Positions 7,580 to 18,434 are shown, counted from the stretch's first letter. The stretch is 46,285 nucleotides of DNA from Candidatus Gribaldobacteria bacterium (GCA_026396705.1 JAPLWE010000064.1:1-46285), one strand, 5' to 3'. The notes: a model not told the origin generated them from the letters alone. A program made the numbers and translations.

Positions 7580-7611
7580 TTGACAGAAATATGGAAGGTA
7601 TGATATCATAG
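7580..7611 (+). promoter_or_regulatory. Predicted hsdM promoter with a perfect 12-bp palindrome over the -10
   Basis: TTGACA at 7580-7585, an 18-nt spacer, and an extended -10 TGaTATCAT (TATCAT 7604-7609). The palindrome TATGATATCATA lies at 7600-7611. The ATG is at 7618. Confidence 0.5.
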
Positions 7612-7617
7612 GAAAAT

Positions 7618-9327
7618 ATGCAAAAAACTAATCAAGATAAAAAATTGTTATCAATAGGGGAAGTTGCCAAAATTTTTGGATTAGACAGAGATACCCTTAG
7701 AAATTGGGAAAAGAAAGGTATTATTACGCCTTTACGCGTTGGTCCACGGGGCGATCGAAAATATCGGCCAGAAGATATTGAGAAAATTTCAAATGATAAA
7801 AGTATCGTTAAAGATCTTGGCGTGCCACTTACAGACGACGAAGGGAAAATGAACCTTACTCAACTTAAACAGTTTCTTTGGAAAAGCGCTGATATTTTAA
7901 GGGGTAAGATTGACAGCTCGGATTACAAAAAGTATATTTTTGGGCTTTTGTTTTACAAAAGAATGAGCGATGTTTGGGACGAAGAATATCATTTTGTAAT
8001 GGAAGAATACAGAGATGACATAGTTGCTGATGCTGACTATAATCACCGATTTCAAGTGCCCAAAGATTGTCGCTGGGAAATAATTCAAAAGCAAGCCGAA
8101 GGCATTGGGCCAAAGCTTAATGAAATTTTTGAAAAACTAACTACTGCTAATAGCCCCAAGCTGGATAAAATTTTTGATGATTTGGATTTTGCCAACAAAG
8201 ATAAATTTCCAAACGAAACATTACAAAAGCTGATAAACAACTTTTCAAAACATAATTTTGGTGATAATTATATTAGCTCCGACTTGCTGGGTGATGCTTA
8301 TGAATATCTTATTGAGCAATTTGCGCAGGATGCTGGAAAAAAAGGCGGGGAGTTTTATACCCCGCGAGAAGTTGAGCGGGTGATTATAAATATCTTAAAG
8401 CCCCACGAAAAAGACCACATCTATGATATGTGTGTTGGCTCGGGCGGCTTTCTTTTGGAGGCGTATCATTACCTTAAAGACCAATCAAGCGAGAAGAAAG
8501 CTCGCTCGCTTTATTTATATGGACAGGAAATCAACATCGGCACTTACGCTATTGCCAAAATCAATATGTTTTTGCATGGCCTTGATTCCGCTGATATCCA
8601 ACGAGGGGACACCTTGACTGACCCAAGGTTTCTAAGCCCCGATGGCTCGCTAAAAACATTTGATATTTGCGTGGCCAATCCGCCTTATTCAATCAGTGAA
8701 TGGGAATATGAAACATTTAAAAATGATAAGCACGGCCGAGTGGCTGGCTATGAAATGCCTCCAACCAAAAAAGCCGACTACGCTTTTGTGCTACATATGG
8801 TTAAATCAATGAACGAAAATGGCAAAGCTGGCATTGTGCTGCCACACGGAGTGCTTTTTCGCGGTGGGGCGGAAGGCCGCATCAGGGAACAGCTTATTAA
8901 AAACGACTTAATTGAGGCCATTATCGCTTTGCCCTCAAAGCTTTTTTATGGCACGGGTATACCAGCGGCCATTGTGATATTTAATAAAAACAAACCACAA
9001 AGCCATAAAAATAAAATTTTGATTATTGACGGGGAAAAAGATTTTGAAGAAGGTAAAAACCAAAACCGTTTGCGCAAAAAAGACATTGAAAAAATAGTGT
9101 TGGCTTTTGAGGGCTATCGGGACATTGAAAAATACGCCCGAGTGGTTGATATAAAAGAGTTAAAAGAAAATGAGTTTAACCTAAATGTTCGCCGTTATGT
9201 GGAAAATGGCGAGGAGGAGGAAGTGGTGGATGTAAAAACCGTTTGGGCTGAATTGAAAGAAATTGAAAAATCTCGCGAAACCATCAACAAAAAAGTTGAG
9301 GAGTATCTTAAAAAATTAAAGTATTAA
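7618..9327 (+). CDS. hsdM: Type I R-M methyltransferase subunit HsdM with N-terminal MerR/excisionase-type HTH
   Basis: The N-terminus LLSIGEVAKIFGLDRDTLRNWEKKGIITP..RKYRPEDI is a MerR-type HTH. It is followed by GEFYTPREV, motif I DMCVGSGGFL and motif IV VANPPYS. Confidence 0.93.
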   Translation: MQKTNQDKKLLSIGEVAKIFGLDRDTLRNWEKKGIITPLRVGPRGDRKYRPEDIEKISNDKSIVKDLGVPLTDDEGKMNLTQLKQFLWKSADILRGKIDSSDYKKYIFGLLFYKRMSDVWDEEYHFVMEEYRDDIVADADYNHRFQVPKDCRWEIIQKQAEGIGPKLNEIFEKLTTANSPKLDKIFDDLDFANKDKFPNETLQKLINNFSKHNFGDNYISSDLLGDAYEYLIEQFAQDAGKKGGEFYTPREVERVIINILKPHEKDHIYDMCVGSGGFLLEAYHYLKDQSSEKKARSLYLYGQEINIGTYAIAKINMFLHGLDSADIQRGDTLTDPRFLSPDGSLKTFDICVANPPYSISEWEYETFKNDKHGRVAGYEMPPTKKADYAFVLHMVKSMNENGKAGIVLPHGVLFRGGAEGRIREQLIKNDLIEAIIALPSKLFYGTGIPAAIVIFNKNKPQSHKNKILIIDGEKDFEEGKNQNRLRKKDIEKIVLAFEGYRDIEKYARVVDIKELKENEFNLNVRRYVENGEEEEVVDVKTVWAELKEIEKSRETINKKVEEYLKKLKY

Positions 9328-9337
9328 AGTAATCTTT

Positions 9338-9850
9338 ATGGATCATTCTGAAATTAAGAAATTTTTAGAATTGTTCGAAGCCAAAAGAAGTCGCACAGTA
9401 GTCGTGGTTGACTTTGGAAATGTGGAAAAGTGGAAAGAGAGTTTGGGGTGGCGTGTGGGCATACGAGAGCTTGCCGCTTTGGTTAAGCATTTTACTTATG
9501 GCCACCGTTTTTTGCGTCGTTTTTATTATGGAGCTGATTATGGTAAAGATGAAAAATCAACAGCACTGACTAATTGGTCAAAATACATCTTGCGTACCGC
9601 TGACCTAAATGGTTTTGAGGTTATTGATAAGAGGGTAAAATATATCCATAGTCAGAAAAATGTTTATGGTTTTGAAAAGAAATGTGATTTGGATGTCGAG
9701 ATGGCGGTTGATTTTATGCGTGAACGAGACAATTATGATAATATTGTGTTATTTTCTGGAGATGGCGATTTGGTTGCGGCGTTGAAATATCTCTATGAAG
9801 AATACAGTAAAAAAATAATAATTATGAGCGCTCGTGGTCATATTGGCTGA
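9338..9850 (+). CDS. NYN-domain (LabA-like) predicted ribonuclease, ending at an in-frame TGA (homology-like frame continues to 9952)
   Basis: VVVVDFGNVEKW, KKCDLDVEMAVD and VLFSGDGDLVAALKYL are the acidic NYN motifs. After the TGA at 9848-9850 the same frame reads EIIDAKRDKIIEDILYADDF..., as expected for the family C-terminus. Confidence 0.7.
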   Translation: MDHSEIKKFLELFEAKRSRTVVVVDFGNVEKWKESLGWRVGIRELAALVKHFTYGHRFLRRFYYGADYGKDEKSTALTNWSKYILRTADLNGFEVIDKRVKYIHSQKNVYGFEKKCDLDVEMAVDFMRERDNYDNIVLFSGDGDLVAALKYLYEEYSKKIIIMSARGHIG

Positions 9851-10234
9851 GAGATTATTGACGCAAAACGAGATAAAATTATTGAAGATATTCTTTATGC
9901 GGACGATTTTGAGTACCGGTTAAATATGGATAGGTTTCGCAAAAAGAGCTAAAAAATCAAAAGCCCCTACCTTGCGGCAGGGCTTCGATCAAAATCCGTG
10001 TAAGCCAAAGCTTACGATTTAATAATATCAAATTAAGCACGAATGTCAAGGATTTTATCCACAAGCCCTAACCATTTTGTTGGCGCCAACAAAACGATAG
10101 AATTGATGAAGTATGATTTTGTGGAAGATTTTGATTATTTTGTAGCCTCCCCCCAATTTGGGGATGGATTTGACACTTAAGCAACAGGCAAAATTATTGT
10201 CGTTAAAAAATTAAAAAGATAACAAAAAAAATTT

Positions 10235-11077
10235 ATGGAGCAACAAATTATTGTAAAACTACATAAAAATTTTGAGGATTGTGTTCACGAAAAAGATGGC
10301 GTGGAGTTTTGGTATGCCCGAGAGTTGCAAGAACTTCTTGGCTACGATAAGTGGGACAACTTTGAGAATGTTGTCAATAAAGCAAAGATCGCCTGTGAAA
10401 CTGCCAATCAAAAAATTTCCGACCATTTTGCCGACGTCGGGAAAATGGTTGACTTGGGCTCTGGGAGTAAGCGAGAAGTGGCCGATATTATGCTAACCCG
10501 TTATGCCTGCTACCTTATAGCTCAAAATGGCGACCCAAGAAAAAATGAAATTGCTTTTGCGATGACTTATTTTGCTATTCAGACACGCAAACAAGAGGTA
10601 GTAGAACAACGATTAGCGCAATGGGAGCGTTTGCACGCCAGAGAAAAACTGACTATTTCCGAAAAAACTCTTTCGGGTGTTTTATTCGAGCGGGGTGTTG
10701 ACGGCCAAGGGTTCGCCAGAATACGGAGTAAGGGTGATTCGGCTTTATTTGGCGGATATTCCACGCAAGATATGAAAAACAAACTAGGCGTGCCTGATGG
10801 CCGGCCATTGGCTGATTTTTTGCCAGGTGTTACCATAAAAGCCAAAGATTTAGCCAATGAGATAACCAGTTTTAATGTAAAAAAAGACCAAGCATTAAAA
10901 GGTGAAACACCCATTACCTATGAGCATGTGAAAAATAACGAGAATATGCGCGAGATGCTGGCTAAAAGTGGTATTCAGCCCGAGGCCTTACCGCCCGAAG
11001 AAGACACAAAAAAACTTGAACGCAAACTAAAATCCGAAAACAAAAAACTGCCCAAATCCGCTAAAAAATTAAAATAA
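10235..11077 (+). CDS. dinD: DNA-damage-inducible protein D (DinD) family protein
   Basis: The region FEDCVHEKDGVEFWYARELQELLGYDKWDNFENVVNKAKIACE..DHF..KREVADIMLTRYACYLIAQNGDPRK is characteristic of DinD. A Lys-rich tail follows. Confidence 0.8.
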   Translation: MEQQIIVKLHKNFEDCVHEKDGVEFWYARELQELLGYDKWDNFENVVNKAKIACETANQKISDHFADVGKMVDLGSGSKREVADIMLTRYACYLIAQNGDPRKNEIAFAMTYFAIQTRKQEVVEQRLAQWERLHAREKLTISEKTLSGVLFERGVDGQGFARIRSKGDSALFGGYSTQDMKNKLGVPDGRPLADFLPGVTIKAKDLANEITSFNVKKDQALKGETPITYEHVKNNENMREMLAKSGIQPEALPPEEDTKKLERKLKSENKKLPKSAKKLK

Positions 11078-11123
11078 TAATAAAAAGTTGAGGAATATTT
11101 AAAAGTGTTAAAATATTAAATTT

Positions 11124-11915
11124 ATGTCTGAAGATGTTAAGGAAGAAAAAGAGAAAATCAGCAAACACAAGTTCTTTTTTGAATTACCATTGTATACACC
11201 AATTGAGCTTGGTGATCTAGAGAAGAGCTTTTGGGAATTTTTCAAAGGGGATGTTGATGCTTATAGTCCAGATGGATTTGATACTACTTATACTATTGCG
11301 ATCTGGAACCTTGGTCAAAGTGATAGTACATACAATGGTTATTATGCACTAAATCTTGAGTGTAAGAGAAAAGGAAACACTTTAGAATTTTTTATTTATA
11401 AAACAAATGAGGCTATTATGAAGGTCGGCCAGCTCTTATCGCTTGTCGATTTGCAATATGCCGAGATTGAGAAAAAATACGACAAAGTACTTCCTAGACA
11501 AGATTTACACGATCTAAAAAAGGCCATTGGGCTTATGACACACGGCGCAGGGGCAGGCTCGCTCGTATATTTAAGGAGAATATTTGAAAATATTATTTGG
11601 AATACTTATAAAGAATATAAAGCATCAATCGGAGTTGCTGATGAAGAATTTTTAAAAAAGCGGATGGATGAAAAGGTTGATTTTCTTAAAACTTTCCTAC
11701 CGAGCCAGTTAGTAGAAATGAAAAGTATTTATGGAATTTTAAGTAAGGGAGTTCACGAATTAACTGAGGAAGAATGTCTTACTTATTTTCCTGCGTTAAA
11801 GCTTTCAATTATTCTTATTCTTGATCAAAAAATTGAAGAAGATGCTCGAAGCAAGAAAGATGCGGAAACTAAAAGGGCGATAGCTGATATTGCCAAACAG
11901 ATAAATGGAAAATAA
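11124..11915 (+). CDS. Hypothetical protein with DUF4145-like C-terminal helical domain
   Basis: The C-terminal half (GAGSLVYLRRIFENII..YGILSKGVHELTEEECLTYFPALKLSIILILD) follows the DUF4145 pattern often seen next to R-M genes. Its stop overlaps the hsdS start. Confidence 0.55.
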   Translation: MSEDVKEEKEKISKHKFFFELPLYTPIELGDLEKSFWEFFKGDVDAYSPDGFDTTYTIAIWNLGQSDSTYNGYYALNLECKRKGNTLEFFIYKTNEAIMKVGQLLSLVDLQYAEIEKKYDKVLPRQDLHDLKKAIGLMTHGAGAGSLVYLRRIFENIIWNTYKEYKASIGVADEEFLKKRMDEKVDFLKTFLPSQLVEMKSIYGILSKGVHELTEEECLTYFPALKLSIILILDQKIEEDARSKKDAETKRAIADIAKQINGK

Positions 11916-13086
11916 AATTATACAAAAGAATATTCCGAGCGGGTGGCAAGAAGCGAATCTTGGCGATATCACTGACTTATATCAGCCCGAAACTATATCC
12001 AAAAACCAAATGTTATCAGCTGGGAAGTATTTAGTTTTTGGCGCCAATGGGGTTATTGGAAAATATAATAGATTTAACCATGAAGATTCAGAAGTTATTG
12101 TCACTTGTAGGGGTGCTTCTTGCGGTTCCATCAGTATGACACCAAAACAAGCATGGATTACCGGTAATGCCATGGTTATTAAAGTAAATGAAAATAAAAT
12201 TATAAAGCCCTATATATATTATTTTCTAAAAAATTCTAACCTGAACACTGTGATTTCTGGCGGTGCGCAACCCCAAATCACAAGACAGCCAATTTCGGCA
12301 TACAGAATATTATTTCCAAAATCAAAAACCGAGCAGCAAAAGATTGCGGGGATTTTGGGGGCGGTGGATGAGGATATTGCCAAAACCCAGGAAGTGATTG
12401 AGGCGACAGAAAAGCTCAAACGCGGATTGATGCAACAGCTTTTTACCCGCGGTATTGGCCATACAAAATTTAAGGAAACAAAAATCGGACAGATTCCAGA
12501 GGAGTGGGAGGTTGTAAAGTTATCAGAAATTGCACAAGTAGAGCGCGGAAAATTCTCACATAGACCACGCAATGCCCCTGAATTTTATGGTGGCGATATT
12601 CCATTTATCCAAACTGGTGATGTCGTTAATTCAAATGGTAAAATTTCTTTATACACTCAAACCTTAAATGAAAAAGGGCTGTCAGTCAGTAAATTATTTA
12701 AAAAGGGAACAATAGTAATTACTATTGCGGCAAATATTGGCGATACGGGAATATTACAATTTGATTCATGTTTCCCCGATAGTTTAATAGGCATTACTTC
12801 CTCAGAAAAAATTGATTCAATATTTCTTGAATATTATCTTAGAACCCAAAAAGAATATCTGAACAGTATTTCCACTCAATCTGCTCAAAAGAATATTAAC
12901 TTAGAAAAATTAAATCCACTTCCGATAATATTGCCAACAAAAGATGAGCAGAAGAAAATTGCCAACATTCTTTCAGCGGTTGATGAAAAAATTTCGGTTA
13001 ATAAAAAATTAAAAGCAAAACTTACCACGCTTAAAAAAGGCCTAATGCAGGATTTATTGAGCGGGAAAGTAAGAGTTAAAAATTAA
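11905..13086 (+). CDS. hsdS: Type I R-M specificity subunit HsdS (two target-recognition domains)
   Basis: Two variable halves are each followed by the conserved coiled-coil region: EQQKIAGILGAVDEDIAKTQEVI..LKRGLMQQLF and EQKKIANILSAVDEKISVNKKLK..LKKGLMQDLL. Confidence 0.9.
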   Translation: MENKIIQKNIPSGWQEANLGDITDLYQPETISKNQMLSAGKYLVFGANGVIGKYNRFNHEDSEVIVTCRGASCGSISMTPKQAWITGNAMVIKVNENKIIKPYIYYFLKNSNLNTVISGGAQPQITRQPISAYRILFPKSKTEQQKIAGILGAVDEDIAKTQEVIEATEKLKRGLMQQLFTRGIGHTKFKETKIGQIPEEWEVVKLSEIAQVERGKFSHRPRNAPEFYGGDIPFIQTGDVVNSNGKISLYTQTLNEKGLSVSKLFKKGTIVITIAANIGDTGILQFDSCFPDSLIGITSSEKIDSIFLEYYLRTQKEYLNSISTQSAQKNINLEKLNPLPIILPTKDEQKKIANILSAVDEKISVNKKLKAKLTTLKKGLMQDLLSGKVRVKN

Positions 13087-13150
13087 AAATATGTTTAGAT
13101 TTAACTTAATAGAAAAAATAAAGCTGATATTTAATATCAAAGCATCGAAC

Positions 13151-13199
13151 AGGAGAGCCGTTGATAGTAGGAGAGCCGTTGATAGTAGGAGGGCTGGTG
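13151..13199. repeat. 18-bp tandem repeat, 2 perfect copies plus a degenerate third
   Basis: AGGAGAGCCGTTGATAGT occurs at 13151-13168 and 13169-13186, followed by AGGAGGGCTGGTG. Confidence 0.85.
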
Positions 13200-13462
13200 T
13201 TTTAGTTGAGGGTAGAAGTTCCACTTTTGTAAATTGTAAAGGAATTGGGCCAGACGCTGGCATGATAGACAAAGGAAAATGTACGAAAGTAATCAATAGT
13301 GAATGGATAGCCACAGGAAAAAAATAAAAAGCCGAGGCATGGACAAGAAACCCAACCCCGACTTTAATGCATTTCTATTATAACCTACTTTAAGATTAAA
13401 ATTCAGCAAAACGATTTAGTAAAATGTCTAAAAACCCAGTATTTTAAGGCAAAATAAGGGCA

Positions 13463-13495
13463 TTTACTTTACTATATCAGTGTAGTAATATAGTA
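13463..13495 (+). promoter_or_regulatory. Possible promoter of the AAA ATPase gene with an overlapping inverted repeat
   Basis: TTTACT (13463-13468), 17 nt, TAATAT (13486-13491). The IR TACTATAT (13470-13477) / ATATAGTA (13488-13495) covers the spacer and the -10. Confidence 0.35.
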
Positions 13496-13534
13496 GGTGG
13501 CGTTACTGTATCACTCTAGAAATATATCAAATAT

Positions 13535-14968
13535 ATGGAAGAAATACTAAAATATGTCCAAAATCAGCTTGTTCAAGTCCCTTTTCGGTTACGGTCTTAT
13601 ATTCAAGACGAGCAGGGCAAAAAGTACCCTCAAAGAAATATCTATATTAAGGTTGATAAATATTTGAGAGATTTTTTGCATAATCCAGAAGCCCGAGATC
13701 GCTGGATTATTATTCCTGGCTTGCGTGGTGTTGGTAAAACCACAATTCTTGCTCAATTGTTTCTTAACCATTACGAAGAAGTCGGCCAACAGAGAATGCT
13801 TTATATTTCGCTTGATGAGGTAGTGAACGTTTTAGGTTCGTCTCTTAAAGACATTTTATCAGCTTATGAAAAAACAATCGGTGAAAGTTTTGAAAAAATC
13901 AATAAGCCGTTGTTTATTTTTATTGACGAAGCTCAATATGATTCCAAATGGGCGTCGGTATTGAAATCTGTTTACGACAGATCAAATAAGGTTTTTGTAG
14001 TTTGTAGCGGTTCTTCTGCTGTTTCTTTACAAACAAACCCAGATGTTATTCGTAGAGCGATTTTTGAGAAGTTATTTCCAACAAACTTTTGTGAATTTTT
14101 GATGATTAAGGAAAGCAAGTATCCAATCAAAAATTTAAAGAAAAATATTAAAGACGCCTTGTTCTTATCTAATTCGGCAAAAGAAGCTTATGATAAATTA
14201 AAAAATTACGAACAATCGGTATTCAGCTTTTGGTCACAGGTAGATCGTCTCTATATTGATGAGTACCTAAAAGTCGGGACTCTCCCATTTGCTGTTAGAA
14301 TCAAAGATGAAGTTCGTGTTTATCAAACCATAAATTTGTTGCTTGATAAGGTTATTAATCAAGATGTTCAAGGCCTTGGTCGTTTTGATCCAAAAACTAT
14401 TAGCTATATTAAGAGAGTTTTATTTTTACTCGCCGAGTCGGAAGTTTTAAGCGTGCAAAAATTAGCCAAAACCCTTGAGATTAGCGTTAACACGGCTTCA
14501 AGTATCCTCGAGGTATTAGAATACACCGAACTATTAATAAGGATTATGCCATATGGTTCTAACGCAAAAAAAGTAAGAAAACCATCAAAATATCAATTTA
14601 TGTCATCGGCTATGCGGTCGGCATTTTTATCGGTTGCTGGAAACTCACAGATGTTTGCTCAGCAAAAAGGCAGATTGATGGAAGATATTGTTGCTATGAT
14701 TATATATCGCGAGTTTGTTGCTAATAGTAGGGGCGCTTTAAATTATGATAGTTCAAAGGGTGGCGCTGATTTTATTTTAACCATCGCGGAAAAAAATATA
14801 ATCCCAATTGAAGTAGGCATGGGCGAGAAACTTGGTACGCAGGTTAGAAATACTATGAAAAAAGTTGGTTCGGCTAAGTATGGCGTAGTAATTTGTAGCA
14901 ACCCACTCGCATTACTGGAAGATGCCAATGTGGTAAAGATTCCACTTGATTATTTCCTTTTAATTTAA
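13535..14968 (+). CDS. AAA+ ATPase with C-terminal PD-(D/E)xK-like module (COG1373-like)
   Basis: Walker A PGLRGVGKTT and Walker B LFIFIDEAQY. The C-terminus GGADFILTIAEKNIIPIEVGMGEK resembles the nuclease-like D..E-x-K module of this family. Confidence 0.75.
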   Translation: MEEILKYVQNQLVQVPFRLRSYIQDEQGKKYPQRNIYIKVDKYLRDFLHNPEARDRWIIIPGLRGVGKTTILAQLFLNHYEEVGQQRMLYISLDEVVNVLGSSLKDILSAYEKTIGESFEKINKPLFIFIDEAQYDSKWASVLKSVYDRSNKVFVVCSGSSAVSLQTNPDVIRRAIFEKLFPTNFCEFLMIKESKYPIKNLKKNIKDALFLSNSAKEAYDKLKNYEQSVFSFWSQVDRLYIDEYLKVGTLPFAVRIKDEVRVYQTINLLLDKVINQDVQGLGRFDPKTISYIKRVLFLLAESEVLSVQKLAKTLEISVNTASSILEVLEYTELLIRIMPYGSNAKKVRKPSKYQFMSSAMRSAFLSVAGNSQMFAQQKGRLMEDIVAMIIYREFVANSRGALNYDSSKGGADFILTIAEKNIIPIEVGMGEKLGTQVRNTMKKVGSAKYGVVICSNPLALLEDANVVKIPLDYFLLI

Positions 14969-14973
14969 TTTTT

Positions 14974-17886
14974 ATGAAATTCAATGAGCAGGTGACAATT
15001 GAGGGGTATATTATTAAGTTTATTAAAGATAAGCTGGGGTTTGAGTATATCAAGCCCGAGGAGTTTGCGGGGTTGAGGGGGCTGGAGAGCGAGTATATTA
15101 TTACCTCGCAACTTTTGGAGGCGGTGAAAAGAATAAACAATGTTGATGATGAGGTGGCGCAAACCGTGGTTCGGGAAGTTAAAAAAATTGATAGCAACCA
15201 AGAATTTTTGCATAAACTCCGCAATGGCATCAATCTTAAAAATCCAGCCACAGGAAACTTTCAGGATTATAGGTTGCTTGATTTTGAGAAGCCAGAAAAC
15301 AATCACTTTGTGGTTACTAACCAGTTTTATTTTGAGGGCAACGCCGAAAATATCCGAGCCGATGTGATGGTTTTTGTGAATGGGCTTCCCCTGGTGGTTA
15401 TTGAAGCCAAAAGCCCCACGGCTTCAGAAAGTGTTAGCTTTGAAAATGGCATTGACCAGATCAAGCGATACGAAAAAAATGCTCGCCGATTGTTTATTCC
15501 GAATTGCTTTAATATCGCCAGCGACGGCTTAAAAACTGTCTATGGGGCAACGGGCGCCTCCAAACAATACTTTTTTCAGTGGAAAGATGTTGAAATTGAA
15601 AAAGAGTTTGGGGGCGAGTTGGAAATGACGCTTTTTTCTTTGCTTTTCAAAGAAAATCTTTTAGATATTATTCAAAATTTTATATTGTTTGAAAAAGAAA
15701 AAGAGAAGCTGGTGAAAAAAATTGCCCGCTATCAGCAAATGCGAGCCACCAATAAAATAGTGGCAAGAGTTGTTACCAAAGAAAAACAGCAAGGCCTTAT
15801 CTGGCACACGCAAGGGTCGGGCAAAACTCTCACAATGTTTTTTACCGCCTGGAAACTGCGGTTTAATAAATTGCTAGCCAATCCCAAGGTGTTTATTTTG
15901 GTTGATAGGGTGGATTTGGACGATCAGATATTTGAAACATTTATCAATGCTGGGGGTAAAAATGTTGAGCGGGTTACTTCCAGAAAAGATTTAGAAGACA
16001 AAATACAAGCCAAAGCCAGCGGGATATTTATTTCTACTATGCAAAAGTTTTCCGAGCTTGGCAATAAAGTGGAAAATTTGGACGAGAATGTGATTATTTT
16101 ATCCGATGAAGCTCACCGAGGCAACGAAGGCGTGTCGGGCATCAATATGCGCCACGCGTTTAAGAAAGCGTTTTTCTTTGGATTCACTGGCACGCCAGTT
16201 GATAAAACCCACACTAACACTTTTCGCAATTACGAGGGAGAAGGTAAGCGCTATTTGGATTATTATTCTATCCAGCAGGCTATTGATGATGGGGCAACAA
16301 TTCCCGTAACTTATGAGGCGCGGCTTTCAAAATTTGCCATTGCTGGTGATAAATTAGACGAGGAGTTTGAAAAAATATCAGGCGACCTTTCAGACAAACA
16401 AAAAACCGAGCTAATGAAAAAACACGCCCGAAAGGCGGCCTTAGTAAAACTGCCAAAACGGATGGAAGCGGTGGCCAAAGATATTGTAGAGCATTACAAG
16501 CTTTATGTGGCGCCAAACGGATTTAAAGCGCAGATTGTGGCTTACGACAGAGAGGCGGTGGCTGGTTATAAAAAACTGTTGGATAAGCTTGTGCCAGCTG
16601 AATGGTCGGCGGTGGTTTATTCACCCGGCGACCCAAACAGCGACTCGGATGATTTAAAAGTTTATAACACCAGCAAAAGAGAACGCGAGCAAGTTATTGA
16701 GAAATTTAAAGATCCAAAATCGTCTTTGCGGTTTCTTTTAGTGTGCGATATGTTGCTAACCGGTTTTGACGCGCCCATTGAACAAGTAATGTATTTAGAC
16801 AAAGCGTTGCGCGACCACAATTTGTTGCAGGCGATTGCCCGCACTAATCGCGTGTATAAAAACAAAGAAGCGGGAAAAATTATTGATTATTATGGCATCA
16901 CTCGCAATCTTTACGACGCCTTGGATTTTGACGAGGATGTGGTTGATTCAGCCATGATTGATATTGAAAGAATAAAAGAGCGGTTTGTGAATGTTTTGAA
17001 CGATACGATGAAAATATTTATTGGCGTGAATATAGAAGACCCATCAATAGACAACTTACGAAGATGTTTGAAAATTTTTATTGATAATCAAGACAAGCAG
17101 AAGTATTTTATGGAAAAGTACGCCAAGCTTAAAAGCTTGTTTGAATTTCTATCGCCTGATCCATTTTTAAAGCAATATATTCGGTCGTTTGAATGGGTAA
17201 CCAGTTTTTACTTGGCATTTTTAAAAGAATTTCAAACCAGCCAAGATAGATACTTGCTTGAAGAGTATGGTGAAAAAGTAAAGGCGCTAATTCAAAAAAG
17301 CGATATTATTGATTACGAGGGCATTACCAAGAATTTTAGAGAGCTTCGGGTAGACGATTTATACACACTTGAGCGGCTAAAAGGAATGGACGAAGAGCAA
17401 AAAGCGCTTAATCTTGAAAAAATGCTTAAGCAGGAGATTTCCATTAACCTTGATGAAAATCCAGCTTATCAAAAGTTTAGCGAGCGGCTTATGGCCATAA
17501 GGCAAGAATTTGAGCAAAATCAGATTGATCTGGCTGAAAGAATTCGCCGGTATGAGCAATTAATGAAAGATATTAGAACAAAGGGGAACGAGGCCAAAGA
17601 AATGGGGCTTGACTTAAAAGAGTATGCTTTATATGTGATTTCGCAGGAGTTTGTTGAAGCCGGTAAAGATGAAGCGATCAAAGAATTTGTAAAAGAATTA
17701 CGAGTTCGCGTTGAAGATGAGCTTGATGCAGGTTGGCAAGAGTCCTCAAAGCGAGATGCGTTTATCAAAGATGTAAAGCAAAATTTGCAAGAGCTTATTT
17801 TGCGAGATTATAAGGACAGATTTAGCGTAAAAGATTTTCCAAAGTTCTTGAATAGGTTGGTAGATATAATCACTAAAAAGTTTTAG
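14974..17886 (+). CDS. hsdR: Type I restriction endonuclease subunit HsdR
   Basis: N-terminal nuclease motif RADVMVFVNGLPLVVIEAKSP, then helicase motifs HTQGSGKTLTMF and ILSDEAHRG. 970 aa. Confidence 0.93.
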   Translation: MKFNEQVTIEGYIIKFIKDKLGFEYIKPEEFAGLRGLESEYIITSQLLEAVKRINNVDDEVAQTVVREVKKIDSNQEFLHKLRNGINLKNPATGNFQDYRLLDFEKPENNHFVVTNQFYFEGNAENIRADVMVFVNGLPLVVIEAKSPTASESVSFENGIDQIKRYEKNARRLFIPNCFNIASDGLKTVYGATGASKQYFFQWKDVEIEKEFGGELEMTLFSLLFKENLLDIIQNFILFEKEKEKLVKKIARYQQMRATNKIVARVVTKEKQQGLIWHTQGSGKTLTMFFTAWKLRFNKLLANPKVFILVDRVDLDDQIFETFINAGGKNVERVTSRKDLEDKIQAKASGIFISTMQKFSELGNKVENLDENVIILSDEAHRGNEGVSGINMRHAFKKAFFFGFTGTPVDKTHTNTFRNYEGEGKRYLDYYSIQQAIDDGATIPVTYEARLSKFAIAGDKLDEEFEKISGDLSDKQKTELMKKHARKAALVKLPKRMEAVAKDIVEHYKLYVAPNGFKAQIVAYDREAVAGYKKLLDKLVPAEWSAVVYSPGDPNSDSDDLKVYNTSKREREQVIEKFKDPKSSLRFLLVCDMLLTGFDAPIEQVMYLDKALRDHNLLQAIARTNRVYKNKEAGKIIDYYGITRNLYDALDFDEDVVDSAMIDIERIKERFVNVLNDTMKIFIGVNIEDPSIDNLRRCLKIFIDNQDKQKYFMEKYAKLKSLFEFLSPDPFLKQYIRSFEWVTSFYLAFLKEFQTSQDRYLLEEYGEKVKALIQKSDIIDYEGITKNFRELRVDDLYTLERLKGMDEEQKALNLEKMLKQEISINLDENPAYQKFSERLMAIRQEFEQNQIDLAERIRRYEQLMKDIRTKGNEAKEMGLDLKEYALYVISQEFVEAGKDEAIKEFVKELRVRVEDELDAGWQESSKRDAFIKDVKQNLQELILRDYKDRFSVKDFPKFLNRLVDIITKKF

Positions 17887-17891
17887 AGGTT

Positions 17892-18434
17892 ATGGAAAAT
17901 AAAATTTCTTATAAACTTAAAAGGAGTAAAAGAGCAAAGCGAATGCGCCTTGCGGTATATTGTGATGGTAGTGTGGTAGTTACCAGCCCACTTGGGGTAG
18001 AACAACCAATTATTGAAAAGTTTATAACGCAAAAGTCGCAATGGGTTATTGGTAAATTGGAATATTTTAAGAGCATTTCAGTGCAGGCATTTGTAAAAGG
18101 CGGCAAAAGAGATTATAAAAAGCATAAAGAATTTGCTTTGGCTTTAGCGCAGAGGAGGATTGAGTATTTTAATAAAGTTTACGGTTTTGAATTTAACAAA
18201 ATAAATATTAAAAACCAGAAAACCCGCTGGGGGAGTTGTTCGCGAAAAGGCAATTTGAATTTTAACTACAAAATTGTTTTGCTTTCGGAGCGATTGGCCG
18301 ATTATATTATTTGCCATGAGTTATGCCACTTAAAAGAGTTTAACCACTCGCAAAAATTTTGGAATCTGCTGGCCAAAGCCGTGCCGGATTATTTGGATAT
18401 AAGAAAAGAATTAAAGAAAAGTAGAATAAATTAA
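17892..18434 (+). CDS. DUF45/YgjP-type (M48-like) zinc metallopeptidase
   Basis: TRWGSCSRKGNLNFNYKIVLL..DYIICHELCHLKEFNHSQKFW contains the HExxH motif in its family context. This family is commonly linked to hsdR. Confidence 0.85.
   Translation: MENKISYKLKRSKRAKRMRLAVYCDGSVVVTSPLGVEQPIIEKFITQKSQWVIGKLEYFKSISVQAFVKGGKRDYKKHKEFALALAQRRIEYFNKVYGFEFNKINIKNQKTRWGSCSRKGNLNFNYKIVLLSERLADYIICHELCHLKEFNHSQKFWNLLAKAVPDYLDIRKELKKSRIN

Follow-up and report, generated by a model that had tools for sequence, protein, structure and literature searches.

Variable defence-type cargo at two junctions of a Patescibacteria Type I restriction-modification operon

In a 46,285-nucleotide (nt) stretch of DNA assigned to a Candidatus Gribaldobacteria bacterium (GCA_026396705.1, JAPLWE010000064.1:1-46285; hereafter the window), the genes of a Type I restriction-modification (R-M) enzyme, hsdM, hsdS and hsdR, are separated from one another by a series of other genes. 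This arrangement raises the question of whether these genes belong to the enzyme or are modules with functions of their own. A sequence-only reading of positions 7618-18434 had described an operon split at every junction by five accessory genes and had taken the whole for a composite defence locus. Here, we consider it probable that the hsdM|hsdS (M|S) and hsdS|hsdR (S|R) junctions are a hotspot at which self-contained defence-type cassettes are gained, lost and swapped. In sequence comparisons, cargo varies between near-identical operons, homology breaks at gene borders, and one of the inserted genes, DinD, is found at either junction. Gene assignments are based on the listing of open reading frames (ORFs) and on four hidden Markov model (HMM) libraries, including Pfam, PADLOC and NCBIfam. 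Coordinates preceded by w are positions in the whole window, and L followed by a number denotes a fetched comparison locus.

The operon consists of hsdM, a NYN gene, DinD, a 263-aa ORF, hsdS, an AAA_14/DUF4143 ATPase gene, hsdR and a YgjP-like (DUF45) peptidase gene (Table 1). The ORF listing and the HMM scans confirmed this gene order, with all nine ORFs of 7618-18434 on the plus strand where they had been placed. The intergenic spacings in gene order are 10, 384, 46, -11, 448, 5 and 5 nt, the negative value being an overlap of the 263-aa ORF with hsdS and the first of the two 5-nt spacings separating the ATPase gene from hsdR.

Judged by gene identities and motifs, the Type I R-M operon itself looks intact. 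HsdM scores 300 bits against TIGR00497 (cutoff 242.75) and has NPPY at residue 354 and GSGGF at about residue 274. HsdS has two Methylase_S stretches, as expected for a subunit with two target-recognition domains, and the model PDLC03099 spans its residues 11-392. HsdR has the expected make-up of an N-terminal PD-(D/E)xK nuclease, an SF2 motor and a C-terminal domain and retains D130-x14-E145-A-K147, GSGKT and DEAH, and the catalytic motifs are likewise intact in the ATPase (Walker A and B) and in the peptidase. In Type I systems, the HsdM2S1(R2) enzyme is the primary barrier. The product of hsdM is 74-87% identical to its counterparts in L002, L006, L008, L009 and L010, and its N terminus carries a MerR/HTH_17-type DNA-binding domain (aa 10-69, w7645-7824; Pfam). 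HsdM has 564-592 aa in the sibling operons, as in the window, and the 520-aa HsdM of another locus, L121, has no HTH-type Pfam domain listed. By analogy with the separate RptR repressor of an enteropathogenic Escherichia coli (EPEC) island, the fused MerR-type helix-turn-helix (HTH) may provide built-in autoregulation.

Sibling operons came from a GTDB scan for the 263-aa ORF family and a metagenome scan for HsdR (40 loci), which together gave 21 operons visible from hsdM through hsdR. Their HsdR is 28-86% identical to that of the window, and more than 60% identical in 19 of the 21. Cargo was present at M|S and/or S|R in every one of them (1-7 ORFs, median 2), and 66 of the 67 cargo ORFs point in the direction of the hsd genes, so the arrangement is not due to chance. 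When partial loci are included, clustering by sequence sorts 92 cargo ORFs at or upstream of the junctions and those of the window into 64 groups. Among the recurrent cargo are a ThsB-TIR gene with a 150-aa partner (six loci), DinD (five loci, at either junction), DUF4145 (four), MazF-like, Shedu SduA, SMODS/CBASS cyclase, RhuM/PDC-S05, Fic, Abi_alpha, AbiEii-like AAA_21, DUF3800 and DUF3644. Siblings whose HsdR is 68-86% identical carry quite different cargo.

The DUF45 peptidase gene behaves differently from this cargo. Of the 15 siblings in which hsdR is full-length, 14 have it directly 3' of hsdR, and in the 15th the contig stops at hsdR. It is thus a constant partner of hsdR and not an insert. 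Between hsdR and DUF45, cargo is never present. The earlier picture of an operon split at every junction therefore holds for M|S and S|R and fails for this third junction, and the count of five inserts falls to four, one of which (NYN) is probably defective. We infer that the peptidase is a true accessory of HsdR, which might for instance control or clear it; a literature search for DUF45/YgjP together with hsdR found nothing mechanistic.

Comparison with the closest sibling, L109 (89-93% nucleotide identity in the common parts), makes the turnover visible at high resolution. Its gene order is hsdM-MazF-DinD-MazF-?-hsdS-DUF3800-hsdR, and the DinD cassette including its leader (w10137-11080) is held in common, while every other slot differs. 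The inserts of the window are each found in or next to hsd operons elsewhere (DinD, NYN, the 263-aa ORF and AAA_14/DUF4143), so the linkage to hsd genes was borne out; they do not travel together, as none of the 21 siblings repeats NYN, DinD, the 263-aa ORF and AAA_14, and L109 has the DinD cassette alone in common. The inserts are thus linked to hsd but are not a travelling set, as the cargo of sibling operons varies. The sequence-only reading was right in kind, in that this is a Type I R-M operon with genes embedded at its internal junctions, and overstated, in that these genes do not form a composite of parts that go together. The same observations bear on the notion of one co-evolved nine-gene machine, in which the accessory proteins would all be obligatory parts of a new multi-component restriction system. 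The single strand, the tight packing and the one strong promoter-like site in front agree with such a machine, which is nevertheless extremely improbable given that the set recurs in no sibling, that HsdM, HsdS, HsdR and DUF45 pair with 1-7 unrelated cargo genes, and that footprints in the DNA indicate stepwise insertion.

These footprints are seen at the nucleotide level. Similarity between the window and its siblings is found in four stretches, namely w7543-9328 (hsdM with its promoter-like site), two short segments of hsdS, and w14973-18410 (hsdR with DUF45); it ends at the hsdM stop codon and is back at the hsdR start codon (w14972-14974). Within hsdS, only two conserved regions match, a central one (12320-12515) and a C-terminal one (12945-13080); the target-recognition domains are therefore not those of the siblings. 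Furthermore, a 44-nt copy of the hsdM 3' end (w11082-11125, 80% identical to w9290-9333) lies upstream of the 263-aa ORF and meets it via a 'TAAATTTATG' junction. The same junction was observed in L006, L008, L009 and L010, where the 263-aa ORF comes straight after hsdM, and L009 matches w11080-11195. The copy is the footprint of an ancestral junction of hsdM with the 263-aa ORF, the block from NYN to DinD having been inserted there later.

An A/T-rich 13-mer, TTAAAAAATTAAA, was also noted. With at most one mismatch it has nine matches in the window against 2.9 expected, and none of 100 shuffles reaches nine. Five of the nine lie within the cassette-bearing w9308-13013 (at 9308, 10203, 11061, 11108 and 13001), mostly not far from cassette borders: they are located in the leader of DinD and around the ends of hsdM, DinD and hsdS. 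At several C termini the motif encodes ...KKLK. It may serve as recombination microhomology. The enrichment of this 13-mer and the hsdM-tail duplication are the sole repeat signals at cassette borders. An integron-like cassette array was considered and rejected, since the window has no recombinase and there is no repeated structured site at the cassette ends. Cassette turnover would proceed by recombination for which the conserved hsd genes, along with short A/T-rich stretches at the junctions, provide the anchors. Once in place, the cassettes would be transcribed both with the operon and from promoters of their own, and they would act as independent second-line defences or ride on selection for R-M, without being subunits of the restriction enzyme; the peptidase would be the only accessory of HsdR among the extra genes.

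Large serine recombinases of 427-456 aa (Resolvase, Recombinase and Zn ribbon) were found divergently upstream of hsdM in seven siblings (L083 2655-3992, L087 3110-4453, L090 2635-3963, L002 4831-6159, L008 6846-8138, L009 689-2059 and L010 2954-4237), which suggests carriage of these operons on integrative elements.

DinD is the best-defined cassette of the M|S junction. Its product is a Bro-N protein that matches the NF008573 equivalog over residues 1-279 of 280 (E 4e-104, 348 bits against a cutoff of 242), the PADLOC model PDC-S13 over residues 1-277 (HMM 1-278 of 281, E 8.3e-115) and phrog_8036. The cassette comprises a 98-nt leader, with a predicted promoter-like site at 10170-10197, and the ORF. 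The block is 92% identical to L109 936-1878, with the same boundaries. In L109 DinD occupies M|S; in L096 and L097 it occupies S|R. In the literature, we found no report of a phage-protection test for PDC-S13.

The NYN gene next to hsdM is in a different state. The NYN domain and its conserved Asp residues are present, and the ORF (9338-9850) is 34 codons shorter than its homologues. It stops at an in-frame TGA (9848-9850), and the 34 codons that follow, up to 9952, align with NYN homologues; the gene thus appears truncated, with a homologous untranslated 3' remnant at 9851-9952. Either a nonsense mutation of recent date or an error in sequencing accounts for the stop, and the gene is probably defective. 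Recoding of TGA was rejected as an explanation, TGA ending 7 of 33 genes and the long ORFs being intact under table 11. The gap of 280 nt first described between NYN and DinD agrees with the 282-nt spacer that is left if NYN is counted to 9952; strictly, as the ORF ends at 9850, the gap is 384 nt and is made up of a 102-nt gene remnant and that spacer. Among the siblings, NYN lies immediately 3' of hsdM in one, L097.

The spacer at 9953-10136 has no homologue in any fetched locus and no Rfam family, and an Rfam search of both gaps of the operon gave nothing above noise. The proposal that this spacer and the 78-aa ORF at S|R are decayed known genes was rejected, as tblastx against 138 loci matched only shared leaders. 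On the minus strand, a promoter-like site was predicted at 10049->10022 (TTGACA-16-TGnTATTAT, 11/12 matches), and two terminator-type hairpins followed by a U-tract lie at 10020->9950 (z = -3.5). These elements at 9950-10049 could specify an antisense small RNA of about 60 nt inside the operon.

The 263-aa ORF, hereafter ORF4, has an N-terminal beta domain and a C-terminal helical domain. Its family occurs in 245 species genomes (GTDB scan), with 64 invariant columns across 23 homologues. The AF2 model has a mean pLDDT of 86 and found no fold match in the PDB at E<=1e-3 (Foldseek); a profile search of PDB sequences gave no significant match, and no PADLOC model matches the protein. The label DUF4145-like, which the sequence-only reading had attached to ORF4, had to be dropped. 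Pfam gave no match at E<=10, whether to DUF4145 (PF13643) or to another family, for the protein and 22 homologues, and hhalign against three genuine DUF4145 proteins of sibling cargo returned a probability of 2.1%; what ORF4 and DUF4145 have in common is a loosely similar motif pattern. A RnlA/HEPN-like match was weak (probability 0.4) and was set aside as unusable. Two unnamed phage proteins match ORF4 (BFVD), and its C-terminal half matches phrog_25239.

In about 10 of the 80 fetched loci, ORF4 occupies the M|S junction; the HsdM of these is 38-87% identical, and Type I families at only 38-44% are among them. Elsewhere its neighbours are SNF2/ResIII helicases, Type III-like methylases, TIR genes and SMODS genes, and in other genomes it adjoins GroEL, GatB or LepA. 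By the same embedding logic that yielded the PDC list of candidate families, the ORF4 family is a defence candidate.

The recurrence of ORF4 at one junction also bears on a model in which at least one embedded protein would attach to the Type I enzyme, be kept silent by it and fire, through RNA or DNA cleavage or growth arrest, once a phage anti-restriction protein has knocked out the enzyme; PrrC in EcoprrI is an established precedent. Occupation of the M|S junction in about ten loci across divergent Type I families would fit such a guardian, as would the tight spacing, with the 11-nt overlap of ORF4 and hsdS and the 5 nt between the ATPase gene and hsdR. The PADLOC Specificity_I model PDLC03083 furthermore matches DinD (E 3.7e-50), which suggests that DinD-HsdS fusions exist. 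However, the Pfam and PADLOC scans found no PrrC/RloC-type ABC ATPase or anticodon-nuclease domain in any ORF of the window, each cargo family also occurs away from hsd (ORF4 beside GroEL, GatB and LepA; AAA_14 beside transposases and other systems), DinD takes either junction, and cargo differs between near-identical enzymes. We therefore regard a guardian role as quite unlikely, and DinD, ORF4 and AAA_14/DUF4143 are best read as candidate autonomous second-line or rider modules. The autonomy of the cargo genes is apparent from homologues outside hsd operons for ORF4 and AAA_14 and from a PHROG family for DinD.

At the S|R junction, the gap of about 450 nt with a tandem repeat that had been described was found again as a 448-nt spacing, which is either non-coding or decayed. 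The repeat (13151-13191) has 2.3 copies of 18 nt, 100% identical, and lies inside the 78-aa ORF at 13091-13327. This ORF has no family match (Pfam, PADLOC, NCBIfam, PHROG) and no homologue in the 138 loci; its position is that of the DUF3800 gene in L109. Next comes a non-coding stretch of 53 nt (13319-13371) that matches L109 at 100%, against only 89-93% identity for the flanking genes. The spacer at 13319-13408 folds like an intrinsic terminator when read on the minus strand (z = -3.1), and not when read on the plus strand (z = -0.06). In L109 the 53-nt stretch lies 56 nt upstream of hsdR and might therefore end an antisense transcript over the hsdR start.

The ATPase is built of AAA_14, a wHTH-like segment and a PD-(D/E)xK-like DUF4143, and its gene is part of a discrete unit of 1.56 kb, consisting of a 122-nt leader with a palindrome and the ORF. 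L109 lacks the unit (breakpoints w13408/9 and w14971/2), and the same span recurs at 73-81% nucleotide identity in unrelated contexts in L121-L130. Across many Patescibacteria lineages, the protein is 74-95% identical. Its closest homologue on a long contig (89% identity) is directly upstream of a different Type I operon, and in L131-L134 the gene is flanked by transposase genes. The payloads found with it in L121-L130 include a Type I R-M system with an ABC ATPase, a 1516-aa helicase-DUF559 protein, and an EcoRI-like methylase with GmrSD/HNH; in L121, a SMC_N/AAA_21 protein lies between hsdS and hsdR. The serine-recombinase neighbours, the variable cargo and the wHTH-like segment make a regulatory or mobile-element role for the ATPase a live alternative to a role in defence.

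Two further observations concern this unit. The palindrome of the leader (13465-13490), TACTATAT-N10-ATATAGTA, lies within the part that is 73-81% identical to L121-L130, and it could be an operator for the ATPase protein's own wHTH. The element of L121-L130 (e.g., L125 2034-12207) has on one strand a large serine recombinase, small genes and DUF5659, and on the other AAA_14/DUF4143 and a 61-aa DUF7695 gene, which head a variable defence payload.

The reading of the junctions as a hotspot for defence-type cassettes has to be weighed against several observations. In other settings, the AAA_14 module looks like part of the backbone of serine-recombinase elements, and this would suit a regulatory or mobile-element role as well as a defence one; moreover, a representative of PDC-S01 gave no protection against T4, T5 or T7 in one reported test. 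The NYN candidate HEC-09 was negative in phage assays, and the truncation of NYN means that at least one slot may be decaying. The window contains no recombinase and no att-type repeat, recombination being read from footprints, and the sibling set consists of metagenomes biased to groundwater Patescibacteria, many of them partial contigs. Some of these points would favour a genomic sink, an idea that has been discussed in the literature, in which the junctions tolerate insertions and selfish or mobile-element cargo hitch-hikes there, several pieces decaying and bringing little antiviral benefit. The premature stop of NYN, the S|R gap with its orphan ORF and repeat lacking homologues, the AAA_14 unit (conserved across lineages beside large serine recombinases or transposases and heading variable cargo), the serine recombinases flanking seven sibling operons, and the negative phage assays of PDC-S01 and HEC-09 all point that way. 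Nevertheless, many of the sibling cargo genes belong to validated defence families (ThsB, Shedu, CBASS, RhuM/PDC-S05, AbiE-like); NYN apart, the cargo ORFs are intact and show strong conservation, as the invariant columns of ORF4 illustrate; and the co-orientation argues for selection on expression. A mere sink is thus unlikely, and turnover of defence-type cassettes is still the preferred explanation. PDC-S05 was positive in a phage assay, and PDC-S01, described as an ATPase fused to PD-(D/E)xK, is reported to rank fourth by frequency among the 'defence systems' of prokaryotes. Caution is advisable, because PDC-S01 behaves here like a mobile-element backbone or leader gene.

The locus resembles several known arrangements. 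Embedding of genes has been published for Type I R-M, BREX, DISARM and Hma systems and is frequent in Type I R-M; 96.7% of the embedded genes are co-oriented, and the PDC models derive from such genes (Payne et al. 2024, 10.1101/2024.01.29.577857). The loci of that guilt-by-embedding survey likewise hold diverse co-oriented genes, known defences as well as unknowns, nested in a multigene system, and the cargo of the window lies, as there, on the same strand between genes of one defence system. Two of the inserts, DinD and AAA_14/DUF4143, match HMMs built from such embedded genes (PDC-S13 and PDC-S01), and the proposed check with PADLOC-type models thus came out in favour of the sequence-only reading. 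The survey covered RefSeq genomes, whereas the present case is a Patescibacteria operon family with all 21 siblings occupied, an ORF4 that has no PADLOC model, and recombination footprints visible at the nucleotide level. The operon of the window is a fresh example of the published embedded-gene pattern and not a new kind of system.

A twin in layout is the EPEC RRDM island, RptR-HsdM-HsdS-DarTG2-HsdR-M48, for which phage defence has been demonstrated and the hsdS-hsdR site suggested to be a recombination hotspot (PMC12255303). Both loci begin with an HTH regulator, followed by M, S, cargo at hsdS-hsdR, R and a Zn metallopeptidase gene. They differ in that RptR is a separate protein of 9 kDa whereas the MerR-type HTH is fused to HsdM here, in the cargo (DarTG2 against AAA_14/DUF4143 and others), and in the additional M|S cargo of the window. 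The M48 and DUF45 metallopeptidases both follow hsdR and are alike by position; the EPEC peptidase is probably a fixed companion of HsdR as well. A plasmid of Vibrio casei (NZ_AP018682) carries hsdM-hsdS-Fic-AbiEi-AbiEii-hsdR-SprT/YgjP-like, with cargo at S|R as in the window and, immediately 3' of hsdR, a gene whose product is homologous to the DUF45 peptidase described here (30.7% identity, E 3e-20); unlike the window, this proteobacterial plasmid has other cargo and an empty M|S. Genes inserted inside an hsd operon are also known from EcoprrI-PrrC and from the rlo genes of Campylobacter. PrrC in EcoprrI is the only mechanistically coupled example, coupling of cargo to the enzyme being known for PrrC alone, and the window lacks an ABC-ATPase anticodon nuclease. 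Rousset et al. in 2022 reportedly described defence hotspots bounded by conserved genes in P2/P4 satellites and in core genomes. Such hotspots have in common with the window the conserved flanks and the sharply bounded variable defence cargo; here, the flanks are subunits of one enzyme, and two slots lie within a single operon.

R-M systems are thought to bear much of the antiviral load in bacteria of the candidate phyla radiation, and the operon extends the embedding pattern to these bacteria. It offers a nucleotide-level picture of defence-gene shuffling in a restriction operon, with sharp breakpoints at gene borders, the remnant of an hsdM tail and constant ends of the 1.56-kb module. The added value is modest and lies in these footprints, the 100% slot occupancy, the unclassified ORF4 family and the mobile-module behaviour of PDC-S01; the widespread ORF4 family, without a Pfam or PADLOC model, is flagged as a defence candidate, and the current understanding of Type I systems is unchanged. 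A bolder view is that the operon family (HTH-HsdM ... HsdR-DUF45), which in Patescibacteria often has large serine recombinases as neighbours, is a dedicated two-slot defence 'cassette platform' in a phylum largely without CRISPR. Three companion proposals would go with it: that the ORF4 family is a new defence effector or sensor preferring the M|S slot, that the ultra-conserved 1.56-kb module is a mobile regulator or 'leader' heading defence operons and not an effector, and that the conserved minus-strand terminator and the promoter elements in the gaps serve antisense control of hsdR. Taken jointly, these four claims are unlikely.

Table 1 Features of the operon and its spacers (window coordinates)
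Feature	Position	Strand	Evidence and remarks
Promoter-like site 5' of hsdM	7580..7609	+	TTGACA-18-TATCAT, extended -10 TG; 11/12 matches; predicted
hsdM, Type I methyltransferase subunit	7618..9327	+	HsdM_N + N6_Mtase; TIGR00497; N-terminal MerR-type HTH
NYN cassette (PIN-like RNase)	9338..9952, ORF end 9850	+	PF01936, E 2.8e-14
Orphan spacer	9953..10136	.	Minus-strand promoter-like site + terminator-type hairpins
DinD / PDC-S13 cassette	10137..11080, ORF 10235-11077	+	NF008573, PADLOC, sibling alignment
hsdM 3'-end leftover copy	11082..11125	+	80% identical to 9290-9333
263-aa ORF (ORF4)	11124..11915	+	Conserved two-domain protein, no Pfam/PADLOC family
hsdS, specificity subunit	11905..13086	+	Two Methylase_S domains, 393 aa
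Orphan 78-aa ORF	13091..13327	+	Contains tandem repeat; doubtful as gene
Conserved spacer	13319..13408	.	L109 identity, minus-strand hairpin
AAA_14/wHTH/DUF4143 module (PDC-S01)	13413..14973, ORF 13535-14968	+	Pfam, PADLOC E 1.7e-28
hsdR, restriction/translocase subunit	14974..17886	+	TIGR00348, E 6e-168
YgjP-like (DUF45) HExxH metallopeptidase	17892..18434	+	PF01863, E 5.4e-43, HELCH motif

The surroundings of the operon indicate its status in the host. By TypA and its other housekeeping genes, the window belongs to Patescibacteria/Paceibacterota; among named organisms, Portnoybacteria gave the best match to TypA (87% identity). Two relatives with 90-91% identical TypA (L135 and L136) lack the hsd operon; synteny with them extends as far as w7496, where a Pif1-like helicase gene ends, after which both have Phd/ParE and RadC in place of the operon. 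The hsd operon is thus accessory DNA in a Patescibacteria chromosome. A tRNA search of the window found none.

The neighbourhood from typA to Pif1 (w3899-7500) is itself a multi-slot variable region in the host lineage. Between these genes, L135 has a methyltransferase and an intact NYN gene of 180 aa. The window contains a second R-M system, in which an MvaI/BcnI-family endonuclease gene (w395-1102, plus strand) adjoins a gene on the minus strand (w1099-2964) whose 621-aa product joins a LexA DNA-binding domain to an S24 self-cleaving peptidase and an N4/N6 DNA methyltransferase. The pair is also present in L135, and DUF3800 takes its place in L136. The LexA-type module on the methylase could tie control of this R-M system to DNA damage. 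Farther downstream, w24000-46285 contains a long run of co-directional genes with a low-GC stretch (30-33%) at 38-44 kb, as seen from the ORF list and base composition.

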